From Gammaproteobacteria bacterium (GTDB lineage Bacteria; Pseudomonadota; Gammaproteobacteria; Burkholderiales; Nitrosomonadaceae), in NCBI GenBank assembly GCA_030431985.1, contig JAUIIB010000003.1, forward strand, positions 1 through 64,000: 64,000 nt of DNA. The letters run 5' to 3'. The notes under the pieces were generated by a model. The model was not told the DNA's origin. It did no database searches and was given only the letters and a program-made list of their open reading frames with translations. A program made the translations under genes and the position numbers. Below are positions 157 through 12,295 of the stretch, piece by piece; the first letter of the stretch is position 1; each line of letters starts with the position of its first letter.

Positions 157-1932
157 CTAGCTAAAATGTTCGGTCAAATAGTCACCTAACTCTTGTACAA
201 AACGCCAAACGTCGTCCTCTCTAGTTGGATTTTCCCTTATAAAGTTTGCCGCTTCATTTGCCCATGCCCACTTTTTTCTTTTTGAAGCAACTATATTACA
301 GCCAGAAAGCCACTCCTCCAGTTCACCTACTTCAACTATAAAGATTCCCATTACACGTAACTTTTTAATGACACTTTTAAGCCGGTCAGCTATATCACTG
401 GGTAGTTTGCTTATCCCACCACTTTTCAAGTCACTCATTCCGTCGAGTGACGAACGTAGCGTAGAAAGATCATTTCTCAGGCTTATATCGTCTCGTCTAG
501 TCCAGCTATACTTTTTAGATGCCATGGCGTTAAGCTTATCAAGCACTTGCTTTTCGGTAATAGTCGGGGGCAGCTTTCGCACTTCTTCAGCTACACTTTC
601 TATTTCTGCCATCAATTCCAAAACAGCAATATTGTCATCACTAATACTGGCAAGCATCTGCTTCATCTTTACTGTATCAGTAATTACGTCCAGATCCGCT
701 ATGATTGCCACAGGAATTCCAAGGATTTTATACATATTGCAAGTGTCAGCTATCCCACCTGTACCGCCAACAGTAGTAAAGTGGATATCAAAATTCTGTT
801 CGACACCTATTTTTTCCCATGCAGCTTGGTAAACTATGCGATCTCCATCACCTTCTACAATCGTTACAGCTTGTGAAAATATCCCGTCTAGAACTGTTTC
901 AGCACGAACAGTTGGTTTTTTCATTGCATCTGCTAATGCTGCAGAATCGACATGCCTAGCCGAGAACCCATCTGAATTTTTTGTTAGCCGTATTATTTGG
1001 AGCTTAGCCGCTGTTTGAATTACACCACGAAGAATTTGACTACTATGGGTGGCTACAAATGTAGCTGTTTGATCTGATGTAGCATTTTGACCTATAAATT
1101 GTCCGAGATTATAAGACTGGGGTGGATGAAGGCACATTTCCGGTTCATCTATTACGCTAACAGGTCTGCGGCCTAATAAGAGGGATATGACAGTTGCAAT
1201 GTATGATTTCATACCGTCACCCTCAGATTCTATAGTACGATATTTTTTCATTTCATGAACTGATAAACGCGCTTCTGCACTAGGAACCTGTCCATCTTCA
1301 CTAACCCTTAGACATAACTTGTTTCCTCTAGAACCATCTGACCAAATGGCTTTTGAAAATGATCTCTGTGATTCTTTTGTTAACGCGTCACGAGCAACAT
1401 CATTTAAATGTAGCGCATGAAGATCATTGCCAGGTGCCTGCTTTTCGAAATCAATCATACCCACTGAAACCAAACTGGTTAAACGATTCTCAAGAAATAG
1501 TGCGGTAACTAAAAATTTACTAGTCCAATCAAAGTACTCATTCTTGCGTTTTTTAGAGGTTGCTGTCGCTGATTTACTTTGCAATTGTTGGAGTTGTTGG
1601 GAACCTATATTTTTAGCACCTTGACCAGTGCCAAGAGATGTTGTCATAGGAATATACTGCTCTTGATCGTTGTCATCCCACATACTATACATGTAGCCCT
1701 CTTGCTTTAAACATCTTAGAAATGGGTCGAGTTCTGGGGTTTCTATTTCTAGATCAGAAGCAACAACAAGCTCTCTTGGTTCGCCAGATATTCTTTCCTT
1801 AATATCACGCAAAAGTTGGCTTTTTCCTGACGAGTTCGGCCCAACAATTACCGTCAACCCGGTACAGAAAATTTCCCCTAACCCCGGTAATTCAAGACGT
1901 TTTATCGGTTTAAAATCGGTTAGTTTTTCCAT
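157..1932 (-). CDS. OLD-family (overcoming lysogenization defect) ATPase/TOPRIM nuclease, class-1-like stand-alone
   Basis: 591 aa. N-terminal ABC/AAA_21-type ATPase with Walker A GPNSSGKSQ, signature-like SEGDGMKSY and Walker B/D-loop VSVIDEPEMCLHP. C-terminal TOPRIM with catalytic Glu (TIVEGDGDR) and DxD (ADLDVITD). Length close to phage P2 Old. Confidence 0.6.
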   Translation of the reverse strand: MEKLTDFKPIKRLELPGLGEIFCTGLTVIVGPNSSGKSQLLRDIKERISGEPRELVVASDLEIETPELDPFLRCLKQEGYMYSMWDDNDQEQYIPMTTSLGTGQGAKNIGSQQLQQLQSKSATATSKKRKNEYFDWTSKFLVTALFLENRLTSLVSVGMIDFEKQAPGNDLHALHLNDVARDALTKESQRSFSKAIWSDGSRGNKLCLRVSEDGQVPSAEARLSVHEMKKYRTIESEGDGMKSYIATVISLLLGRRPVSVIDEPEMCLHPPQSYNLGQFIGQNATSDQTATFVATHSSQILRGVIQTAAKLQIIRLTKNSDGFSARHVDSAALADAMKKPTVRAETVLDGIFSQAVTIVEGDGDRIVYQAAWEKIGVEQNFDIHFTTVGGTGGIADTCNMYKILGIPVAIIADLDVITDTVKMKQMLASISDDNIAVLELMAEIESVAEEVRKLPPTITEKQVLDKLNAMASKKYSWTRRDDISLRNDLSTLRSSLDGMSDLKSGGISKLPSDIADRLKSVIKKLRVMGIFIVEVGELEEWLSGCNIVASKRKKWAWANEAANFIRENPTREDDVWRFVQELGDYLTEHFS

Positions 1933-2177
1933 GATATCCTAACTTTAGTGTTATCAAAATTCATTGGCGCTATGGTAAGCATTTTCATACTTACCTTGGA
2001 TTGAAATCAGATGCTCAACATAATACAGAATATCACTGCATCCAATTTTCTTTTTGTTTCCATGAGCATAATGGAGAACCATAGCATGTGGTACATACAT
2101 TCTGATAATGTTTACGTCCAAGATGAATTTTGATTGTTGGAGTTGAGCGGCGATACGTTTTGATGGTGTGGTGAAGG

Positions 2178-2492
2178 TTGGAACGGATTATTGTTCCCGT
2201 AGGCCACACCATCGGCGAGAGGTATGCAACAGGAGAGCGCAGCTGTACGTCGTCAGATAATTTTAATCAGAATATCAATGTAGGACTTGTAAAACTTCCA
2301 GGGCCCAATCTATCGGATGGTCCTTATTTACACCCTTATTCTCTTTCACAACTTATTCACATCAAGTTAAAGCTAAATGCCAAGGTTTTCTTTGCCAGCA
2401 GATTATTTGTTGTTCCTGAACCCGGCACACTCACACTGATAACGCTTGGTATGTTTGCGCTCTTTTATTACATCAGGAGAAGACATTATTAG
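2178..2492 (+). pseudogene. PEP-CTERM protein C-terminal remnant (exosortase sorting signal); no signal peptide
   Basis: C-terminus ...VVPEPGTLTLITLGMFALFYYIRRRHY has a PEP motif, a hydrophobic helix and an Arg cluster. The 104-aa ORF has no N-terminal signal peptide, so a fragment or relic is likely. Confidence 0.4.
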
Positions 2493-2504
2493 AATGAATA
2501 AAAA

Positions 2505-2535
2505 AGGCCGGATCAAGGGGAATCCGGCCTTTATA
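2505..2535. terminator. Rho-independent terminator hairpin (GGCCGGAT...ATCCGGCC) flanked by an A-run and a T-run; possibly bidirectional
   Basis: Perfect 8-bp GC-rich inverted repeat with an 8-nt loop, followed by TTTAT on the + strand and preceded by AAAAAA. Confidence 0.5.
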
Positions 2536-2847
2536 CAACGCTCATTTATTCGCTTTTTTGGAAAGCAATTCTATTAACGGCAGGTTTGGTGTTAAGGTTT
2601 AAGCCCTTACTATTAATTAGTGTGCCGAGATTTTAATAAGGTCTTTACAGCGTACAGCGTCGGTCAATGTATAAAGCTGTCAACTGGGAGTATGAGAGAA
2701 ATTATAGTTTAGAAGAGTGAGCGCGAGTGTGCTGTGTTTCAACAGATATTACATTGTCTAATACTTCATACATAAATTCCTTAACCCCGGGCGCACTAGA
2801 ACCACGAGGGACGGCAACATTCAGAACCTGAATTTAACTACTACAAA

Positions 2848-4446
2848 TTACCGTAACTCTGAGAAAGTCAGATTAAATCGTTGGAGAAATACTTTAAGAC
2901 GATTGGTATCGTTGCTACTGTTTTTTTTGAGCCTTGAAACATTGAACAAGATTCGTCCTGCTTCGGCAATGGTTTTGCAGTTTCTGCAGACCTGAATAAC
3001 TTGCGAAAGTTGATATTGCTCGAACAAGTCTATTTGTTCTATTGCTTCATCGCTTAAATAACTGTTTAAAATATTGTGTTGGTCGGCTTTATCTGCTGAT
3101 AGCCCCTTCCAGTCGGCTTGTAACCGTCCAATTTCATTGATAACAATTTCTTCAGTAATTCGCCCGCCATGCGCTAAAATTGCCATACGAATCACGCTTG
3201 CATTTAGGTCTCTGAAGTTTCCATGCCAAATTGCATTGGGCGCCATGCCGAAGTCCAAATAGCGTTTTAACGCCGCTTGATTAAAGCTGACTTTATAGCC
3301 AACCAGTTGTGTGATTTTTTGGAGCTCGTAGTGTAGATTGGGCTCCAGATCTTCAATCCTGTCTTTAAGTGATGGCAGCTCATAAGTCCAGAGATTAATA
3401 CGTGCCAACAAATCCTCTCTGAATCTGCCGTTTTTGACATGCTCATGCAGTCTGCGATTGGTTCCGGCAATCAGTTGAAAGTCGCTACTAACCTCCTTGT
3501 CGCCACCAAAAGGCATAAATACTTTATCTTCCAGAGCGCGTAGTAGCATGGCTTGTTCGTCCAGCCCTAATTCGCCGACTTCATCTAAAAACAATAGTCC
3601 GTTATTTGCCTCACGGAGCAACCCTGTTCGGTCATTTTGCGCACCGGTAAATGCGCCTTTTACATGCCCAAACAATGCAGACATGGCGTTATCACCTCGT
3701 AAGGTTGCGCAGTTTACTTCAACCAAACGACCACTCAAATGCATACGTTGTTGTTTTAAGGCATAGATTCTCTTTGCCAAACGTGATTTACCTGCCCCAG
3801 TCGGACCAGTGAGCAGAATTGGTGCGCTCGAGCGTAATGCTACGCGTTCAATCTGCTCTATCATTTGATTAAATGCAACATTACGGGTTTCGATACCGCC
3901 TTTAAGATATTTATTGGCTTCCATTGCTTCTTTTGCAAAGCGTGAGGCAATTTGATCATATTTTGATAAATCGAGATCAATGATGCGCATAGATCCATAT
4001 AAAGCATCAGGTTCACCTTGTTTTCCAGGTGAAGTTTGCAATAACTTTGCAGGTATGTATCTTGCCTCAGTCAGTAAGAACAAACAAATTTGTGCAACAT
4101 GTGTACCTGTAGTGATGTGAACATGGTAATTCTCATGTTCTGGATCAAAGGAATAAGTGTCTGCAAATGTATGCAGTTGACTGTAAACCGTTTCAAAATC
4201 CCAAGGATTTTCATAATCAACAGAATATAAGTTGACTTCAGTCTTTGGTGAAAGCTCACGTATATCTGCCGCCGTTAATTCTGCGAGTTGCCGTTCGTTG
4301 ATATGGTGTATAAGTTCTAAGCGAGCAAGGGAAAAATCTTTTTGCATTGCAATTGATACTGTAGGCCGCCATCGGCCATACCTGCGCATCCCTAATCCAC
4401 CATGATCCAGTCTCGAACCTAAAATACCAATTACAATATTATTCAT
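2848..4446 (-). CDS. rtcR: RtcR, sigma54-dependent transcriptional activator of the RNA repair operon (N-terminal CARF domain, central AAA+ sigma54 activator, C-terminal HTH)
   Basis: Collinear similarity to E. coli RtcR throughout, including N-terminal CARF (IGILGSRLD..WRPT..), TGPTGAGKS Walker A, the GAFTGA motif and a C-terminal HTH. Divergent from rtcB. Confidence 0.85.
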   Translation of the reverse strand: MNNIVIGILGSRLDHGGLGMRRYGRWRPTVSIAMQKDFSLARLELIHHINERQLAELTAADIRELSPKTEVNLYSVDYENPWDFETVYSQLHTFADTYSFDPEHENYHVHITTGTHVAQICLFLLTEARYIPAKLLQTSPGKQGEPDALYGSMRIIDLDLSKYDQIASRFAKEAMEANKYLKGGIETRNVAFNQMIEQIERVALRSSAPILLTGPTGAGKSRLAKRIYALKQQRMHLSGRLVEVNCATLRGDNAMSALFGHVKGAFTGAQNDRTGLLREANNGLLFLDEVGELGLDEQAMLLRALEDKVFMPFGGDKEVSSDFQLIAGTNRRLHEHVKNGRFREDLLARINLWTYELPSLKDRIEDLEPNLHYELQKITQLVGYKVSFNQAALKRYLDFGMAPNAIWHGNFRDLNASVIRMAILAHGGRITEEIVINEIGRLQADWKGLSADKADQHNILNSYLSDEAIEQIDLFEQYQLSQVIQVCRNCKTIAEAGRILFNVSRLKKNSSNDTNRLKVFLQRFNLTFSELR

Positions 4447-4580
4447 AAAAGTAATTATCTATTTATTTTAATAGATTTATTATAAGTTTAATTTATGTTA
4501 TTGAGAATTAAATTTTGATGAAAAATATATTTATTAACAAAAACAATATTTTATTAATTTTTCCATAGATTTCTGAATTC

Positions 4581-4596
4581 TGGCACAGCGATTGCT
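4581..4596 (+). promoter_or_regulatory. sigma54 (-24/-12) promoter TGGCAC-N5-TTGC upstream of rtcB
   Basis: tggcacagcgattgct matches the RpoN consensus TGGCAC N5 TTGCW. It lies ~110 nt upstream of the rtcB ATG in an AT-rich intergenic region adjacent to rtcR. Confidence 0.6.
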
Positions 4597-4707
4597 GTAA
4601 CTAATAGCAACCGAGTATTAAGCTGCTCAACTAAAAACACGTTTCGATAAAGTGTCGAGCACAAGAATCTAACCCGTAACTCGGATCAAAGTTCAGAAGG
4701 AGAAAAG

Positions 4708-5934
4708 ATGGATACCAAATACGAAGTCATCGCCGAGCAAAACCAAGCTGTGGTCAAATCATGGACGCGAGGCGTAACGTTTGACGACAACGCACGAAAA
4801 CAGGTACGTCAACTCGCGAGCATGCCTTTCATTCATCAACATATCGCAATAATGCCGGATGTGCACTTAGGTAAAGGTGCAACAATAGGTAGTGTTATTC
4901 CAACAATAGGCGCGGTGATTCCTGCTGCAGTCGGTGTTGATTTGGGTTGCGGGATGATGGCTGTGAGAACCAGTCTAAATGCATGTGATTTACCAGACTC
5001 ACTGATTAATCTACGCCACGAAATTGAGAAAAATGTGCCACATGGTCGTTCCGCCAACTACCAACATGGACGGGACAAAGGAAGCTGGAACAATCTTCCT
5101 GAAGACGTGGAGCAAGCTTGGCTAAGCTTAGATGACGGTTTTAATCGTCTATGTGAAAAACATCCATTTCTAAAAAACACCAATAATAAACAGCACCTAG
5201 GAACACTCGGAACCGGGAATCACTTTATTGAATTGTGTTTGGATGAATCAGATAACGTTTGGGTTATGTTACATAGCGGATCACGTGGTGTAGGCAACAA
5301 GATTGGTTCTGAGTTTATTCAAAAAGCAAAGAAAGATATGGAGCGTTGGTTTATTCATTTGCCTGACAAAGATTTAGCTTATATTCCAGAGGGTAGTCAG
5401 CATTTTGGCGACTACATTTCAGCCGTTTCATGGGCACAGGATTTTGCCAGGGCAAACCGTCAGGTAATGATGAACCGGACATTGACGGCATTACAGAAAA
5501 TCATAACCAAGCCTTTTTCAACAGCACTAGAAGCGGTCAACTGCCACCACAACTATATTAGCCGCGAACACCATTTTGGCAGTGATGTTTGGGTAACTCG
5601 GAAAGGTGCAGTCTCTGCCAGACTGGATGAGATGGGGATTATTCCAGGCAGTATGGGAGCGAAGTCATTTATTGTACGCGGTCTTGGTAACAGTGAAAGC
5701 TTTTGTAGCTGTAGTCACGGCGCAGGACGGATAATGTCCCGCAAAGAAGCGAAGCACCTTGTATCCATGGAAGAACATCTGGCTGCCACAGCGGAAGTGG
5801 AATGCCGTAAAGACGAAAGCGTGATTGATGAAACACCATCTGCTTACAAAGATATTGAAAAGGTAATGGCAGCACAATCTGATTTAGTTGAAATTGTACA
5901 TACATTAAAGCAAGTCGTTTGCGTAAAGGGATAA
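4708..5934 (+). CDS. rtcB: RNA-splicing ligase RtcB (3'-phosphate/2',3'-cyclic phosphate to 5'-OH RNA ligase)
   Basis: 408 aa. N-terminus MPFIHQHIAIMPDVHLGKGATIGSVIPT and overall collinearity with E. coli RtcB. RBS AAGGAG upstream. Confidence 0.9.
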   Translation: MDTKYEVIAEQNQAVVKSWTRGVTFDDNARKQVRQLASMPFIHQHIAIMPDVHLGKGATIGSVIPTIGAVIPAAVGVDLGCGMMAVRTSLNACDLPDSLINLRHEIEKNVPHGRSANYQHGRDKGSWNNLPEDVEQAWLSLDDGFNRLCEKHPFLKNTNNKQHLGTLGTGNHFIELCLDESDNVWVMLHSGSRGVGNKIGSEFIQKAKKDMERWFIHLPDKDLAYIPEGSQHFGDYISAVSWAQDFARANRQVMMNRTLTALQKIITKPFSTALEAVNCHHNYISREHHFGSDVWVTRKGAVSARLDEMGIIPGSMGAKSFIVRGLGNSESFCSCSHGAGRIMSRKEAKHLVSMEEHLAATAEVECRKDESVIDETPSAYKDIEKVMAAQSDLVEIVHTLKQVVCVKG

Positions 5935-6068
5935 GTCTATAAATTAGATACAAAAGCATCACATAAGAATTTGGTCAGTTTTTTCGTTAGCGGAGCTGGT
6001 TCAAAATCCAGCCCGACACAGTTTAAGTTTATAAATTTGTGTATCAACGCTAAAAACAACCAAGTAAT

Positions 6069-6146
6069 GCGACTATAGCTCAGCCAGGCAGAGCAACGGA
6101 AACAAAATTTCCGCAGGTCGCTGGTTCGAATCCAGCTAGTCGCGCC
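6069..6146 (+). tRNA. tRNA-like element 1 (probable pseudo-tRNA): canonical acceptor, D and T arms but a 2-nt expanded anticodon arm (9-nt loop, or 7-bp stem with 5-nt loop CAAAA), no U33
   Basis: GCGACTA/TAGTCGC 7-bp acceptor, GCTC..GAGC D-stem, GCTGG-TTCGAAT-CCAGC T-arm and AGGTC variable loop. The anticodon region ACGGA-AACAAAATT-TCCGC has no canonical 7-nt loop. Confidence 0.45.
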
Positions 6147-6222
6147 TTCACTGTAGCTCAGTTAGGTAGAGCAGTTGATGATTAATCAACCTGTCGGCGG
6201 TTCGAATCCGCCCGTGAAACCA
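6147..6222 (+). tRNA. tRNA-like element 2 (probable pseudo-tRNA): cloverleaf with encoded CCA, but a bulged acceptor stem and an anticodon loop TGATTAA lacking U33 (alternatively a 6-bp stem with 5-nt loop)
   Basis: D-arm GCTC-AGTTAGGTA-GAGC, anticodon arm GTTGA-TGATTAA-TCAAC, T-arm GGCGG-TTCGAAT-CCGCC. Acceptor TTCACTG/CGTGAA pairs only with a bulge. Confidence 0.45.
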
Positions 6223-6514
6223 CCCTGTAAAGGTGTTTTAAGTTGGGAAGCTAATCATAGCGAGTTGGTTCGAGTCCAACACATTAAAGTAATACCAAGG
6301 TGCTCTCCCTCGAATGTAGCAAGTCAAGTATGACGATAGATAGATAATTAATTATTTTCATACTCCGATTTTCTGCAATCGGCTTCGGGTTTGCCATCAC
6401 TGAGGGTTTGTTTGTTGCGGAATAATAGACAGTTTACCCGATTCCCCAGCTTGCACAATTAGCCATGCCAGGCACGAAGTATAGGAAGCACCATATATCT
6501 AATTGGAGAAAAAA

Positions 6515-7657
6515 ATGTTATTTCAACAAAAATTTATAATCTCAGAAAATCAAAAAGGATTGCTATATAAGGACAAAAAATTCTTCAAGGTTCTTGATGC
6601 AGGGAAATATCGCTTCTGGTCTGTCGACAATAATTATGAATTAAAGCTAGTTGAATCGATAGTACTGAATCGCGAAATTACGAATGAAGACTTATTATCC
6701 GTCGTTGAATCACACACATCTGAATTTGCTCAGCATGTTACTCTTTGGGAAACCAGTGCCGAAGAAATCGGGTTGATCTATGAACAAAATGTGTTGAAAG
6801 ACATTAAATTATCAAGTCAACATGGCGCCTTCTGGAAAAATGTTCGTGAAATCCGTATCGATAAAATCAATATCAGCAGCGATTTCAACATTTCCCAACG
6901 TATGGCTGCACTTATGCTGGACGCCGAAAACGCAACACTACGCCAATCGGCCAGTAAAACAATTTATGCAGTTACAGTACCGGAAGATCATATCGGATTC
7001 TTGGAAATCGACGGCAAAGTTTCAAAAACATTAGATACAGGATCTTATGCCTGGTGGAAATTTAGCCGCACACTAAATGTCAAATTGTTTGATATGCGTT
7101 TACAAAATATGGAAGTCAATGGGCAAGAAATACTGACCAAAGATAAAGTAAGCCTGCGTATTAATTTGTCCGCAACCTGGAAAATTGCCAACGCTAATCT
7201 GGTGCGCCAATCATTGACAGATCACAACGACTATTTGTATCGTGAAATGCAACTGGCTTTACGCACCGTCGTATCAACACAAACGTTAGACCAATTACTG
7301 GCAGATAAAAACCTGTTAAATAGCCAGGTAAAAGCATTAGTTTCAACCAAAGCGCAGGAATATGGCATTAGTGTTAAAACGGTAGGAGCCCGTGATATTG
7401 TATTACCTGGTGAAATGAAATCAATTTTGGCTCAGGTAGTTGAAGCAGAAAAAATGGCCGAAGCTAATTTAATTAAACGTCGCGAAGAGACACAAGCTAC
7501 CCGTTCATTGCATAACACAGCCAAAGTAATGGAAAACAATCCTATTCTCTTGCGGTTAAAGGAACTGGAAAGCTTGGAAAAAATTACAGGTCATATTAAT
7601 ACACTCAATGTTTATGGCGGCTTGGATGGTGTTATGAACGACATGATTAAACTGTAG
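6515..7657 (+). CDS. SPFH/band-7 (stomatin/prohibitin/flotillin-like) domain protein with a ~190-aa N-terminal domain of unknown function; no predicted TM segment
   Basis: C-terminal half (..TKDKVSLRINLSATWKI..GISVKTVGARDIVLPGEMK..AEANLIKRREETQATR) matches SPFH domain architecture. The ATG at 6515 is preceded by GGAG, and the upstream in-frame TTG at 6503 is less likely. Confidence 0.6.
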   Translation: MLFQQKFIISENQKGLLYKDKKFFKVLDAGKYRFWSVDNNYELKLVESIVLNREITNEDLLSVVESHTSEFAQHVTLWETSAEEIGLIYEQNVLKDIKLSSQHGAFWKNVREIRIDKINISSDFNISQRMAALMLDAENATLRQSASKTIYAVTVPEDHIGFLEIDGKVSKTLDTGSYAWWKFSRTLNVKLFDMRLQNMEVNGQEILTKDKVSLRINLSATWKIANANLVRQSLTDHNDYLYREMQLALRTVVSTQTLDQLLADKNLLNSQVKALVSTKAQEYGISVKTVGARDIVLPGEMKSILAQVVEAEKMAEANLIKRREETQATRSLHNTAKVMENNPILLRLKELESLEKITGHINTLNVYGGLDGVMNDMIKL

Positions 7658-7784
7658 TAGTTCAGCCTATTCTGTCCAACTTAGGCTAACGGGGGTACAG
7701 CTCTTATTGCTGACTTATTTGGTGACTTTATGGTGACTCGTTGCGATGGCATCCTTGCTGTTTAATTATAAGTCACTGTTTATT

Positions 7785-7834
7785 TGGCGCTATTGAGAGG
7801 AGTCGAACCTCCGACCTACTGATTACGAATCAGC
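7785..7834 (-). pseudogene. Truncated tRNA 3' fragment (tRNA-Thr(CGT)-like anticodon arm, variable loop, T-arm, acceptor 3' strand and CCA; 5' acceptor strand and D-arm absent)
   Basis: Minus strand reads GCTGA-TTCGTAA-TCAGT AGGTC GGAGG-TTCGACT-CCTCT CAATAGC G CCA. No complementary 5' acceptor strand or D-arm lies upstream. Confidence 0.5.
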
Positions 7835-7989
7835 GATTTTTTGCTTTTTATAATCTTTTGAAGGTGCTCACATTTTATTTATCCACTGATGTTCGCAACT
7901 ATCCGGCAGCATAAGATGGGTAGAGCGCTGGGTATAATAAATCACAAATTTATTTTATTATTTATTTACAGACAGATATATTGTTTTAA

Positions 7990-8082
7990 TGGCGGAGACT
8001 GAGGGATTCGAACCCTCGATGAGGCTATAAACCCCATACTCCCTTAGCAGGGGAGCGCCTTCAGCCACTCGGCCAAGTCTCC
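7990..8082 (-). tRNA. tRNA-Ser (anticodon GCT), class II with long variable arm
   Basis: Minus strand: GGAGACT acceptor, 3-bp D-stem, anticodon arm CTCCC-CTGCTAA-GGGAG, long variable arm, T-arm GAGGG-TTCGAAT-CCCTC, then AGTCTCC-G-CCA. Confidence 0.9.
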
Positions 8083-8156
8083 GAAAATGAGGAATCAGCA
8101 TAATAATATGCTGTTGTTTTATGTTACTGAATTATAAAAGCGACATTGTATAGAAT

Positions 8157-9386
8157 TTACAGTGCTTGTTCCAGATCAAATGCTTTATGCAGTACACGCA
8201 CGGCAAGTTCCATATATTTCTCATCAACAACTACTGACACCTTAATCTCTGATGTGGTAATCATCTGTATGTTAATACCTTCTTCCGCTAAAATTCGGAA
8301 CATTTTACTGGCGATACCCGCATGTGAGCGCATACCCACACCGACAATCGATACTTTAGCGATTTTATCACCACCAATAACATCCCGGGCTCCGATATGT
8401 GGTTGAATTTTTTCTTTGATAATGCGTATCGTGTTATCAAAATCGTTACGATGTACTGTAAATGAGAAATCAGTCAGATCATCATGACCAACATTCTGAA
8501 TAATCATATCTACATCAATACCGGCATCTGCTACAGGCCCAAGTATCTGATAGGCAATACCAGGATGATCCGGCACACCCAGAACTGTTATTTTTGCTTC
8601 ATCTTTATTAAATGCGATGCCGGAAATTACAGCCTGCTCCATATTTTCATTTTCCTCAAAAGTAATCAGTGTGCCTGGCCCTTCATCTTCAAAGCTAGAC
8701 AAAACCCTCAGTTTTACCTTGTACTTACCCGCAAATTCTACCGATCTTATTTGCAGCACTTTTGAACCTAGGCTTGCCATTTCGAGCATTTCTTCAAATG
8801 TAATACTATTAAGACGCCTTGCTTCCGGTACAACACGCGGATCAGTCGTATAAATACCGTCAACATCCGTATAAATCTGACATTCATCAGCATGTAATGC
8901 TGCAGCAAGCGCGACACCTGTTGTGTCGGAACCACCACGCCCCAATGTGGTAATGCTGCCATATTGATCCATACCTTGAAATCCGGCAACAATGACAACA
9001 TAACCGTCATTGAGATCTGCAAGAATTTTATCAGCATCGATATTCAAGATGCGCGCCTTTGTATGGGCGCTGTCGGTAAGTATTTTTACCTGCGGGCCTG
9101 TGTAGCTTTTAGCCTTAACATTTAATGCTTTTAGCGCCATCGCCAATAAAGCGATTGAAACTTGCTCGCCGGTGGAAACCATCACATCGAGTTCACGAGG
9201 GTCCGGATTATTCTGAATTTCTTTAGCTAAAGCAATCAGCCGGTTTGTTTCTCCACTCATCGCCGAAACCACAACTACAATTTGATGATTATCGGCGTGA
9301 AACCGTGCTACTCTCCTAGCAACATTCTTGATTCGTTCGGCACTGCCAACCGAAGTCCCACCGTATTTTTGAACGTAAAAAGCCAC
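8157..9386 (-). CDS. lysC: Aspartate kinase (aspartokinase)
   Basis: 409 aa. N-terminus VQKYGGTSVGSAERIKNVA, amino-acid kinase fold, C-terminal ACT domains. Confidence 0.9.
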   Translation of the reverse strand: MAFYVQKYGGTSVGSAERIKNVARRVARFHADNHQIVVVVSAMSGETNRLIALAKEIQNNPDPRELDVMVSTGEQVSIALLAMALKALNVKAKSYTGPQVKILTDSAHTKARILNIDADKILADLNDGYVVIVAGFQGMDQYGSITTLGRGGSDTTGVALAAALHADECQIYTDVDGIYTTDPRVVPEARRLNSITFEEMLEMASLGSKVLQIRSVEFAGKYKVKLRVLSSFEDEGPGTLITFEENENMEQAVISGIAFNKDEAKITVLGVPDHPGIAYQILGPVADAGIDVDMIIQNVGHDDLTDFSFTVHRNDFDNTIRIIKEKIQPHIGARDVIGGDKIAKVSIVGVGMRSHAGIASKMFRILAEEGINIQMITTSEIKVSVVVDEKYMELAVRVLHKAFDLEQAL

Positions 9387-9585
9387 TGATTATTGATCCA
9401 TCGGCATGATGGATTTTTAATAAAAAGACGGGATTTTACACCTTTCTTTACAAGAACACTAATTGACGATCTTTCTAAAGCAAGCAGCAATCAGATATAG
9501 CTGACGACTACTCGTGCACGGATTTTAATAAAAAATTGTATAATATTGGGTTGTTAGGCCACCAACAATAATACTAGGGTCCAGT

Positions 9586-10089
9586 ATGACCAAGCATCAA
9601 AATAATCAAAAAAAGATAAAAGTACTTTTTATATGCATGGGCAATATCTGCCGCTCACCTACTGCAGATGCCGTTTTCAGACATGCAGTAAAAAAAGCCG
9701 GACTTGATCATCAAATTTTTGTAGATTCCGCAGGTACTCATGCTTATCATATCGGCGATCCGCCCGATTCCCGTGCGCAAAGTTCTGCAGTAAAACGCGG
9801 CTATCGAATGAATGAATTGCGTGCACGCAAAGTCGCCGCAAATGATTTTATTGATTTCGATTATATTTTAGCCATGGACAACGAAAATCTAGCGCTATTA
9901 CATCAGAATTGTCCAAGCCAGTTTAATCACAAACTTGGGCTATTTATGCGTTTTAGCAATGGGGCTTATCATGATCAGGAAGTACCTGACCCCTACTTTG
10001 GGGGTAACCAGGGATTTGAGCAAGTACTTGACATGATCGAAGAAGCAAGTCAGGGACTTTTGCAACATATTCGTAATCAGGACACTTAA
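9586..10089 (+). CDS. Low-molecular-weight protein-tyrosine phosphatase
   Basis: P-loop VLFICMGNICRSP (CX5R) and DPYY motif; 167 aa. Confidence 0.85.
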   Translation: MTKHQNNQKKIKVLFICMGNICRSPTADAVFRHAVKKAGLDHQIFVDSAGTHAYHIGDPPDSRAQSSAVKRGYRMNELRARKVAANDFIDFDYILAMDNENLALLHQNCPSQFNHKLGLFMRFSNGAYHDQEVPDPYFGGNQGFEQVLDMIEEASQGLLQHIRNQDT

Positions 10090-10235
10090 AGCATTCACTG
10101 TCATCCATACACAGACAATCACGTCGATTGGATTCACCTAATCCATTCTGCCTGATCCAATAATTGAACATGTCAATCGTTCTTCAAATAGGTGTAAAAC
10201 CGTAAATCACGACTTTACACCTTTACACATGCACA

Positions 10236-11201
10236 TTACCGAACGTCTTTACCCGTCAAAGAACCCAGAAATGCTTTAATATCTCTAACGTCATTGTTAT
10301 CGAGATGATTACGCCCCAACTGATGTTTAGCCATTAACTCAATAGCTTCATCCAGCGTTGCAACAGAGCCGTCATGAAAATAAGGTCCGGTCCGGGTAAT
10401 ATTTCGCAGACTGGGCACCTTAAAAACTCTCTTATCACCTTCAAGCTTTGTGACTTCATATCGCCCCATATCTGAAGTATTATAGGGCACGACAATACCA
10501 AGTTTTTTATAGGAATTGCCGCCAATTACGACACCATTGTGACATGTAGCGCAGCCCACATCGACAAACTTTTTAAGCCCTCTTTTCTCGTCTTCGTCCA
10601 ATGCGTCCTTATCACCCTTAAGAAAGTCGTCAAATCGCGACGGTGTTAACAACGTCCGTTCGAAGGCACCGATAGCAACACCAATATTTTTATATTTAAA
10701 TGGATCGCTCTGATCGCCAAACGCTTCAGCAAACAGAGTCTGATATTCATCAATACCCTGCAGTTTTTTAACGACCGCCTCTTCATTCGGCATACCCATC
10801 TCAACCGGATTCAGAATCGGCCCCAGGGCCTGTTCTTCGACATTTATCGCTCGTCCATCCCAAAATTGTGTTAGATGCAGTGCCGCATTCATGCTTGTCG
10901 GCGAATTTCTATCGCCCCGTTTACCTTCATGACCCGGTGAAGTGGGTTCATTATCAACCCCAAAATTATTCAAACCATGGCATGAGTTACAGGAAATCCG
11001 GTCATTAACTGACAGTCTCGGATCCATATACAATTTTCTACCCAGACTGATGAGAGCAGCATGCTTCTGCTCATCTATGATTGACTCAGGTAATGGCTCA
11101 AAAAACTGCTTGAGCCGTGTCTCATCAAGCGCTTGATCTACAACGCTTTGCGCGTGGACTTGAACACTTAAAAAAAGTGCAGCTAATACCGTTAGTTTCA
11201 T
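10236..11201 (-). CDS. Di-haem cytochrome c peroxidase (CCP/MauG family)
   Basis: Two CxxCH haem motifs (CNSCHG, CATCHNG), signal peptide, 321 aa. Confidence 0.85.
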   Translation of the reverse strand: MKLTVLAALFLSVQVHAQSVVDQALDETRLKQFFEPLPESIIDEQKHAALISLGRKLYMDPRLSVNDRISCNSCHGLNNFGVDNEPTSPGHEGKRGDRNSPTSMNAALHLTQFWDGRAINVEEQALGPILNPVEMGMPNEEAVVKKLQGIDEYQTLFAEAFGDQSDPFKYKNIGVAIGAFERTLLTPSRFDDFLKGDKDALDEDEKRGLKKFVDVGCATCHNGVVIGGNSYKKLGIVVPYNTSDMGRYEVTKLEGDKRVFKVPSLRNITRTGPYFHDGSVATLDEAIELMAKHQLGRNHLDNNDVRDIKAFLGSLTGKDVR

Positions 11202-11398
11202 TTTCCTTCCTCCTTAATATTATTGCTTTGATGACATCCGCTCGAGTTAATAAAACATCGAACAGCTTGATCGAGAAGATTTAATCAAATCCTAAACTGA
11301 GCATCATCAGCTTAGGTATATTGACTATTACTGTAAAGCGAATAATAATTAATTTTATGTTCGTAAAAAACGAATTAATGTTATAACGTAAGAGAATT

Positions 11399-12295
11399 AT
11401 GCTATTACCCAGTCTTAGACAACTTGAATATTTGATTGCGCTAGCTGAACGCCAGCATTTTGGACAGGCCGCGGAGCAATGCCACGTTACCCCTTCAACG
11501 CTAAGCGCCGGCATTCGCGATCTTGAAGACATTCTCGGTGTCGCACTGGCCGAACGAACCAAGCGTCAGGTAGTCATGACAGCTATCGGCATGGATATTG
11601 CCCAACGTGCACGTATTCTCATCCGGGATGCAAGCGATCTTATGACGCTCGCCGCGGCAAATCATGCACCAATGACAGGCATCATGCGATTGGGTGTTAT
11701 ACCGACAATCGGCCCCTATCTATTGCCCAAAAGCATGACAAGTTTAAAACAGCGTTATCCCGACTTTCAAATGTACCTCGATGAAGAAATCACTACGTCT
11801 TTACTCAACAAACTGCGCGACGGCAAACTCGATGCGGCCATTATTGCATTGCCATTTGACACTGAAGATCTGGAAGTCATGCACCTGTTCAAAGACGAAT
11901 TCCAGTTTGCCTGCCATCACAGCCACCCTTTCTCAAGCAAAAAGAAAATCCGACAAAATGAATTGAAAGGCGAACCGTTAATGTTGTTGAAGGAAGGGCA
12001 TTGTATGCGCGGTCATGCATTAAGTGCGTGCAGCCTGGGGGACTATCAAACGCGTGCGCAATTCGAGGCAAGCAGTCTGTCGACACTGGTCATGATGGTT
12101 GATGCAGGATTGGGCGTAACATTACTGCCCGAGCTTGCCATTAACGCTCAAGCTACAGCAAGCACCAAAATTTGCCTATGTCCGCTCGAAAACCCTGCAT
12201 CGCGTGACATCGGTCTGGTCTGGCGCGCTTCGACTTCAAGGAGACAAGAATTTAAGATGCTCGCGGAAACGATAATTGAGTCAATAACACTTTGA
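11399..12295 (+). CDS. oxyR: LysR-family hydrogen peroxide-sensing regulator OxyR-like
   Basis: N-terminal LysR HTH (LRQLEYLIALAERQHFGQAAEQCHVTPSTLS). Redox cysteines in an OxyR-like context (..KEGHCMRGHALSAC..). Divergent from the peroxidase gene. Confidence 0.75.
   Translation: MLLPSLRQLEYLIALAERQHFGQAAEQCHVTPSTLSAGIRDLEDILGVALAERTKRQVVMTAIGMDIAQRARILIRDASDLMTLAAANHAPMTGIMRLGVIPTIGPYLLPKSMTSLKQRYPDFQMYLDEEITTSLLNKLRDGKLDAAIIALPFDTEDLEVMHLFKDEFQFACHHSHPFSSKKKIRQNELKGEPLMLLKEGHCMRGHALSACSLGDYQTRAQFEASSLSTLVMMVDAGLGVTLLPELAINAQATASTKICLCPLENPASRDIGLVWRASTSRRQEFKMLAETIIESITL

Follow-up and report, generated by a model that had tools for sequence, protein, structure and literature searches.

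What function can be assigned to two abutting tRNA-like elements that do not look able to decode, and that stand between the RNA ligase gene rtcB and a gene for an SPFH/Band-7 protein? This question is raised by a 64,000-nucleotide (nt) stretch of a bacterial genome placed in the Nitrosomonadaceae (GenBank assembly GCA_030431985.1, contig JAUIIB010000003.1, positions 1 to 64,000), referred to here as the window, in which the genes follow the order rtcR, rtcB, structured RNA and Band-7. Comparison with related loci points to an array that is probably the RNA component of an rtcB - structured RNA - Band-7 module under the control of RtcR and sigma54, and the cognate RNA of the Band-7 protein.

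A first-pass annotation of this region had described four tRNA-derived modules downstream of rtcB, and all four are present in the sequence where it placed them. Two of them are complete cloverleaves. ARAGORN called two abutting tRNA genes on the forward strand, at 6069-6146 ('Phe', anticodon aaa) and 6146-6221 ('Asn', att), and with the Rfam tRNA model, whose gathering score is 29, unit 1 reached 52.9 bits and unit 2 reached 43.8 bits. Unit 1 has a perfect 7-base-pair (bp) acceptor stem (GCGACTA/TAGTCGC), a D-arm and a T-arm with a GGTTCGAATCC T-loop. Its anticodon arm is enlarged, as the annotation had observed, with a loop of 9 nt (AACAAAATT) or, if paired otherwise, a 6-bp stem and a 5-nt loop. 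The discriminator base is G6144, followed by CCT, and the linker in the window reads GCCT. Unit 2 also has a D-arm and a T-arm, and its irregularities were likewise read correctly in the first pass: the anticodon loop TGATTAA places G at position 33 and A at position 34, and the acceptor stem contains one bulged nucleotide (TTCACTG / C-GTGAA) before an encoded A-CCA end. Neither unit has the canonical 7-nt loop with U33 and a purine at position 37, which is lost through the 9-nt loop in unit 1 and through G33 in unit 2. The 7-bp acceptor stem is found in unit 1, the stem of unit 2 being bulged in the window and only 5-6 bp long across the family. Both units are tRNA mimics unable to decode.

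The diversity of this arrangement was investigated in 80 rtcB loci of Beta- and Gammaproteobacteria, obtained by a genome scan with the window RtcB (69-90% identity). Many of these loci contain pairs of tRNA-like genes 0-1 nt apart downstream of rtcB, to which ARAGORN assigned odd or two-base 'anticodons'. Aligned with one another, 24 dimers fold as a double cloverleaf in which 22 of 36 pairs show compensatory changes, and a covariance model (R1) built from this alignment found full-length copies scoring at least 98 bits (98-173) in 39 of the 80 rtcB loci, in addition to the window. The best genuine tandem tRNAs, from a tRNA array, reach 96.8 bits, which is below the range of the family members. 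When 70 copies were aligned with the model, the 66 distinct ones formed standard pairs in 96.7% of cells and showed compensatory changes in 32 of 41 pairs; none of 500 shuffles reached the observed value, and slid controls paired at 26-39%. The first-pass annotation had named conservation in related rtcB loci as a check on its proposal, and this conservation was found, in keeping with the tRNA mimics that it had proposed and not with decayed tRNA genes or relics of attachment (att) sites.

The pattern of conservation differs between the parts of the dimer. The acceptor stem of unit 1 is usually 7 bp long, and the loop of its anticodon arm ranges from 1 to 22 nt, with 7 nt in only 7 of the 66 copies. 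The units are separated by zero to 4 nt, and the linker reads NCCA in about half of the copies (TCCA in 20, ACCA in 8). The short acceptor stem of unit 2 is kept in sequence as TCACTA/TAGTGA or TTGCTA/TAGCAA. Its loop is 7 nt long in 58 of 66 copies, with 35 different loop sequences among the 66 (for example, CTCATCA, CTCATAA, CTGTTAA and CGGTTAA) and a triplet that varies accordingly (CAU, GUU, AUU and others); in the clade of the window it degenerates to TGATTAA, TTAATAG or the 4-nt loops GTCA and GAAA. The D-arm, the T-arm and the elbow residues (GG...TTC) are nearly invariant across dimers. Selection acts on the top half of the tRNA (acceptor/T minihelix, D-arm and elbow) and not on decoding, and the anticodon ends vary freely, as the first-pass annotation had supposed from the window. 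Because unit-specific features are common to both proteobacterial classes, the dimer must be old. A phage origin is unlikely; a relative was found on only one viral contig.

Another form of the element was observed in eight loci of the Kangiellaceae type (L063, L066, L068, L072, L074, L077, L079 and L080), in which the order is rtcB-rtcA-[RNA]-Band-7. These loci contain only one well-formed tRNA-like unit, which scores 46-69 bits on R1 and is called by ARAGORN as Lys, Met, Asn or with an undetermined anticodon. In the two loci checked for it (L063 and L066), a second T-loop lies 65-83 nt downstream of the unit.

The RNA is not distributed as a companion of rtcB. Among the 80 rtcB loci, the RNA hit lies upstream of a Band-7 homologue in 49 of the 49 loci that have one, at a distance of 217-479 nt and in one case 855 nt, and Band-7 is absent from 27 of the 27 loci without an RNA hit. 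Four further RNA hits have no Band-7 gene within the DNA fetched, two of them at the edge of the locus. Between the rtcB stop codon and the RNA, the distance varies from 95 to 3818 nt. A scan of metagenomes that used Band-7 as its anchor put the dimer upstream of this gene in most of the loci where sufficient upstream DNA was present, and where distant homologues occur in the reversed order, Band-7 followed by RtcB (L134), the RNA is again found ahead of Band-7. The RNA is linked to the SPFH/Band-7 gene and not to the ligase gene, which revises the association with rtcB on which the first-pass annotation was built. The genes found between rtcB and the RNA are rtcA in the Kangiellaceae and unrelated cargo genes in other loci, and the latter suggest a hot spot for insertion at the junction of rtcB with the RNA. 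Cargo open reading frames (ORFs) in this position, ahead of the RNA and Band-7 module, occupy 5349-7440 in L041, 5337-7216 in L037, 5421-6323 in L030 and 5352-6002 in L033.

The dimer is embedded in a conserved structured RNA of ~550 nt that fills the whole spacer between rtcB and Band-7 (Table 1). The description of the array as modules of decreasing completeness was misleading: the first and fourth modules belong to separate conserved structured domains. On the 5' side, a domain with a three-way junction is formed by an outer helix (5971-5975/6059-6063), helix A (5985-5988/6046-6049) and an ACAC/GTGT helix (6016-6019/6039-6042) followed by AUC. Its junction is AG / CGG...CCG with two hairpins, and the junction residues AGCGG / CUGAC / GUAUC are invariant. 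The first module, described in the first pass as a bare T-arm hairpin, is real (5995-6012, GCTGG TTCAAAAT CCAGC) and T-arm-like, but it is the distal hairpin of this junction and does not stand free. RNAalifold gave 24 pairs for the domain, 17 of them with compensatory changes; 90.2% of cells pair, compared with 30-37% in slid controls, and the covariation score is 0.543, compared with 0.193 in shuffles. In Methylomicrobium loci the 5' domain begins directly after the rtcB stop codon. Competition between the hairpin of module 1 and the T-arm of unit 1 was considered as a general feature and rejected, the stems being identical in the window and, by a crude automated comparison, in no other locus.

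Downstream of unit 2, nearly all loci have a hairpin resembling an anticodon stem-loop, with a 4-5-bp stem that covaries (CTACC/GGTAG, CACC/GGTG, CTGG/CCAG, TGCC/GGCA) and a triplet that varies (GUA in the window; GCC, UCC, GAA, GUC and GUU elsewhere). At the position corresponding to 6250-6280, where the window has a small hairpin and a third T-arm, loci of the gamma clade have a GNRA hairpin (GCCC GAAA/GCAA GGGC) and no T-arm. The 3' domain that follows is closed by a helix read from the sequence (GGTGC 6299-6303 / GCACC 6488-6492), encloses two long branches (6311-6381 and 6382-6480) and ends ~20 nt before the Shine-Dalgarno sequence of the Band-7 gene (GGAG, 6505-6508). In the beta clade 88.7% of its cells pair, with compensatory changes in 25 of 52 pairs, and in the gamma-clade equivalent (L017 5720-5905, L038 5535-5730) 94.3% of cells pair, with compensatory changes in 31 of 60 pairs. 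The closing helix of the gamma-clade domain is CCUCC/GGAGG, similar to an anti-Shine-Dalgarno helix, and judging from this sequence it could gate the translation of Band-7. It should be noted that slid controls overstate the contrast for these last structures, because they were derived from the same alignments that were used for counting. Searches of the whole spacer from three loci against Rfam at E up to 10, with ribozymes, GOLLD and ROOL included, gave no credible match for the flanking domains. The Band-7 gene, the hairpin after unit 2 and the 3' domain had all been missed in the first pass.

The product of rtcR is a sigma54-dependent activator with an RtcR/CARF N-terminal domain (Pfam RtcR 2.8e-75 plus Sigma54_activat; NCBIfam RNA_repair_RtcR at 774 bits, above the cut-off). 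The rtcB unit has its sigma54 promoter 112 nt upstream of the ATG of rtcB, and this promoter is the sole zero-mismatch match to TGGCAC-N5-TTGCW in the 64-kb window. A scan of 4300-8096 gave no terminator-like sites on the forward strand, and the window scan gave no promoter-like sites, sigma70-like ones included, between rtcB and Band-7. In the window, the RNA would most simply be read as co-transcribed with rtcB. A consensus sigma54 promoter, TGGCAC-N5-TTGC (TGGCACACCCCTTGCA), occurs 101-160 nt upstream of unit 1 in 8 of the 70 dimers, all of them detached from rtcB. Since these detached copies carry a sigma54 promoter of their own, the RNA and Band-7 module forms a sigma54 unit in its own right. 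The sigma54/RtcR-controlled unit postulated in the first pass agrees with these results.

Table 1. Features of the rtcB-Band-7 region of the window, with the sigma54 promoters of modules detached from rtcB in other loci
Feature	Position	Strand	Evidence or remark
rtcR	2848..4446	-	Pfam and NCBIfam
Sigma54 promoter of the rtcB unit, TGGCACAGCGATTGCT	4581..4596	+	Zero-mismatch match to TGGCAC-N5-TTGCW
rtcB RNA ligase gene	4708..5934	+	Pfam RtcB 1.4e-130
5' three-way-junction RNA domain	5967..6064	+	Conserved in all clades; covariation
tRNA-like unit 1	6069..6144	+	ARAGORN, Rfam tRNA, covariation
tRNA-like unit 2	6147..6219	+	ARAGORN, Rfam tRNA, covariation
Anticodon-stem-loop-like hairpin, CACC CTGTAAA GGTG	6221..6235	+	Loop pattern C-U-N-N-N-A-A/C
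Small hairpin, GCTA-ATCA-TAGC	6250..6261	+	Conserved in betaproteobacterial relatives
Third T-arm, GTTGG TTCGAGT CCAAC	6264..6280	+	Betaproteobacterial relatives only; one compensatory T-stem pair
Structured 3' domain, leader of the Band-7 gene	6299..6492 (~200 nt)	+	Covariation
SPFH/Band-7 gene	6515..7657	+	Pfam Band_7 6.9e-27
Sigma54 promoters of detached modules	L041 7999-8014; L033 6925-6940; L042 8918-8933; also L101, L136, L047, L092, L105

The partner gene encodes a soluble SPFH/Band-7 protein ('slipin family') of 380 amino acids with no transmembrane segment. Residues 9-62 resemble residues 154-208, at the start of the SPFH domain, which indicates an internal duplication. Its best matches in the PDB are stomatins (SPFH domain and long helices). 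Foldseek searches with an AlphaFold2 model (mean predicted local distance difference test score 80) returned stomatin, HflK/C and prohibitin at E 4e-15 to about 1e-11, as well as, over 420-479 columns, the major vault protein with its repeats, SPFH shoulder and cap helix (E about 1e-9 to 1e-10) with low template modelling (TM) scores of 0.44-0.46. A structure search for an RNA-binding fold in the N-terminal domain gave weak SPFH-like matches only. The fold family indicated by the model builds rings and cages, which is compatible with a scaffold role for the protein and does not show one.

A slipin that is 39% identical occurs together with a nucleotidyltransferase gene in 1632 of 5426 complete Escherichia coli genomes (about 30%). 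For instance, in E. coli L152 (CP061233.1) this pair lies at 5680-7919 between a DUF3811 gene and lysC, and rtcB is not adjacent. A sigma54-like promoter (TGGCACGCTTCTCGCA) and a structured region with a lone T-arm (TGGGTTCGATTCCCA) precede the slipin; R1, ARAGORN and Rfam gave no match in the E. coli slipin locus, and a tRNA-like unit is not detectable there. The nucleotidyltransferase associated with the slipin elsewhere was sought in the window and is absent from it.

Comparison with known systems limits the novelty of the element. According to the Discussion of Wang et al. [quoted passage not shown] The three features given there, a tRNA-like cloverleaf non-coding RNA (ncRNA), an adjacent Band-7/SPFH gene and an RtcB repair neighbourhood, are all present in the window. 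The window RNA is of this predicted and unvalidated kind, and the claim of a new class made in the first pass does not hold. There are differences, however. The secondary account has a single tRNA-like RNA and the window has a fixed dimer with unit-specific features, to which the 5' three-way junction, the anticodon-arm mimic and the ~200-nt 3' domain are added. Earlier descriptions may not extend to the fixed dimer and the large flanking domains. The b7a-tRNA has no Rfam family, and a literature search for experimental work on b7a-tRNA or on SPFH-RtcB found only a 2026 survey of P. aeruginosa SPFH genes, which reports one embedded in the rtc locus and is silent on any RNA.

Also close to the window RNA are the YrlA RNAs (RF02553), which occur with Ro60 in rsr-yrlBA-rtcBA operons. 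The window RNA and YrlA are both tRNA mimics in an RtcR-controlled RNA-repair operon, both keep the elbow and top half and have a replaced decoding end, and the two are similar in sequence over the T-arm, linker and D-arm. In this sense the analogy with YrlA drawn in the first pass is sound, although the RNA does not qualify as YrlA itself (41.4 bits, compared with a gathering score of 69). YrlA has been proposed to have a dimeric-tRNA origin, and the window RNA is an extant dimer in the same type of operon. In contrast to YrlA, it consists of two complete cloverleaves that are not circularly permuted, has no Ro-binding stem or rsr gene, and lies downstream of rtcB and upstream of Band-7. With canonical tandem tRNA genes the family shares the cloverleaf, conserved D and T loops and Rfam tRNA matches, and it differs from them in its 0-4-nt spacing, aberrant and variable anticodon loops, short unit 2 acceptor stem and lack of a conserved anticodon. 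The vault ribonucleoprotein (RNP), made up of the major vault protein, vault RNA and the TROVE protein TEP1, might offer a further parallel, in that an SPFH-type cage-former would be combined with a small structured RNA; the Band-7 protein is predicted to have beta repeats at its N-terminus, followed in the list of its parts by an SPFH domain and a long helix, and related systems include a TROVE protein. This likeness is one of predicted structure, the TM-scores are low, and the N-terminal domain taken by itself matches only SPFH proteins, weakly.

We therefore return to the function of the RNA. On the reading that we favour and consider probable, the RNA would be transcribed from the sigma54 promoter of rtcB or, in detached modules, from the module's own sigma54 promoter. 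The cloverleaves would be recognised by tRNA-processing enzymes, with RNase P cutting 5' of each unit, and cleavage ahead of unit 2 would give unit 1 an NCCA end that is often encoded. The tRNA-sized RNAs released in this way, or else the whole leader, would serve as the cognate RNA partner of an oligomeric Band-7 protein, and the two may assemble into an RNP that serves RtcB-dependent repair as cofactor or scaffold. This role is modelled on the one proposed for Ro60/YrlA in rsr-yrlA-rtcBA operons. Several points weigh against it. We infer every one of its functional steps, and the constant spacing to the Band-7 start, together with the structured leader ~20 nt from the Shine-Dalgarno sequence, would fit a purely cis-regulatory role equally well. 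Recognition of unit 2 by RNase P is uncertain in the clade of the window because the acceptor stem is bulged there. Some Band-7 loci (L116, L139, L142 and the E. coli type) have no detectable tRNA-like unit. Finally, the equivalence with b7a-tRNA rests on the description in a secondary account.

Of the other explanations, the one that survives best is that the RNA acts in cis as operon punctuation and leader, which we regard as possible but not the likelier outcome. The two units would be RNase P/Z processing and stability signals separating the rtcB and Band-7 messages, the 3' domain would control the translation of Band-7, and no trans-acting RNA would be made. This scenario is consistent with the fixed spacing to the Band-7 start, with a 3' domain that closes just before the Shine-Dalgarno sequence (and, in gamma-clade loci, with its anti-Shine-Dalgarno-like helix), and with the window scan, in which no terminator or sigma70-like promoter separates the parts. 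There is also precedent for tRNA-mRNA co-transcripts in the E. coli tufB operon. Processing signals would, however, have no need of the two full cloverleaves, D/T elbow residues, unit-specific acceptors and frequent NCCA that are kept across beta- and gammaproteobacteria, and in the literature, as represented by the Discussion of Wang et al. 2018, the RNA and YrlA/Rsr are taken to be interchangeable. The cis-acting scenario and a cognate RNA of the Band-7 protein are compatible with each other.

An unlikely second alternative is that the mimics are sensors of damage or bait. [quoted passage not shown] RtcR is activated by tRNA fragments with cyclic phosphate ends, and YrlA has been suggested to be a competitive inhibitor of nuclease, both of which would suit this model. 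The loops point in both directions. Those of unit 2 often look canonical (CTCATAA, CTGTTAA) and a separate hairpin with a C-U-NNN-A-A loop follows this unit, yet the loops are the least conserved part of the dimer, down to a unit 1 loop of 1-22 nt and window-clade unit 2 loops of TGATTAA, TTAATAG or 4 nt (GAAA or GTCA), and a nuclease-specific bait should hold its loop. Because the RNA lies downstream of the very promoter that it would induce, the model also requires basal transcription. Salmonella YrlA, moreover, was not cleaved.

We give very little credence to the array being a YrlA-family Y RNA, which would be made up of the unit 1 T-arm, a closed acceptor-like hairpin and the unit 2 D-arm and would act with an unlinked Ro60. 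The Rfam YrlA model does match 6093-6200 at 41.4 bits (E 1e-7 in a 701-nt search), and L038 and L017 match at 29 bits, but the gathering score is 69. Chen et al. 2014 reported that dimeric tRNAs yield such false positives and took a Ro60/Rsr gene within ~4 kb as the criterion for YrlA; the match here covers the unit 1 T-arm and the unit 2 D-arm, as in a false positive of that kind. As the first-pass annotation had noted, there is no sign of a Ro60/Rsr gene: a scan of eight large ORFs within the first 12.3 kb (157-12295) gave no TROVE/Rsr domain, other ORFs and the rest of the window lying outside that scan. The closed hairpin, to which unit 1 would contribute its 3' acceptor strand and unit 2 its 5' acceptor strand, pairs in 35.2% of cells, a value equalled or exceeded by 491 of 500 shuffles, and it is the acceptor stems of the two cloverleaves that covary instead. 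Membership in YrlA was rejected on the below-threshold score, the known artefact and the unsupported closed hairpin. Equally hard to credit are decayed tRNA genes, att-site relics or ordinary functional tRNAs, since, although tRNA detectors call both units and cargo genes have been inserted between rtcB and the RNA in some loci, the covariation across 66 distinct copies and two proteobacterial classes excludes decay and relics, Band-7 linkage is strict, and ordinary tRNAs would not have an unconserved anticodon triplet, a unit 2 acceptor of 5-6 bp and a unit 1 loop that is almost never 7 nt long.

Other tRNA genes and neighbours were observed at rtc loci. In Methylophilaceae, a tRNA-Pro(UGG)-like gene with an encoded CCA lies in the rtcB leader (L003 3856-3969, L006 2980-3057 and L007 161-237); the copy in L003 lacks G18-G19, has U56 and stands directly after the sigma54 promoter. 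With this gene, the tRNA-like elements of rtc operons come to three kinds; it is absent from the window. Two loci from metagenome-assembled genomes contain rtcB with ordinary tRNA genes, an array of 18 on both sides in L075 (1120-4867) and six upstream in L055 (2303-3135), and both are without Band-7. In the window, rtcR is adjoined by a defence-type gene for an OLD-family AAA and TOPRIM nuclease (157-1932, reverse strand), and RtcA is absent throughout the 64 kb. An aspartokinase gene (lysC) on the opposite strand adjoins the Band-7 module both in the window (7990-9386) and in E. coli L152 (9025-10374); this shared neighbour is probably a coincidence.

These results bear on two questions, namely the targets of RtcB repair in bacteria and the role of the accessory ncRNAs in rtc operons. 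Predicted by bioinformatics in 2016, and without experimental follow-up in the literature searched, the Band-7/tRNA-like variant now gains a precise anatomy in the form of a fixed dimer, an NCCA junction that is encoded, a mimic of the anticodon arm, two large flanking domains and dedicated sigma54 promoters. A covariance model and about 70 sequences are available as resources, and tractable hosts exist in P. aeruginosa, with its SPFH gene in the rtc locus, and in the roughly 30% of E. coli genomes that carry the slipin and nucleotidyltransferase island. A bolder reading, which we consider rather doubtful, is that the dimer is the recognisable core of one ~550-nt multi-domain RNA that joins a soluble, vault-like SPFH cage protein in an RtcR-induced RNP. 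Such a particle would be a bacterial counterpart of the Ro/Y-RNA and vault particles, and its RNA would represent in a living form the dimeric-tRNA ancestor that has been suggested for YrlA. A soluble SPFH cage employing a tRNA mimic would, if true, extend SPFH biology beyond membranes and tie bacterial RNA repair to the Ro and vault RNPs.

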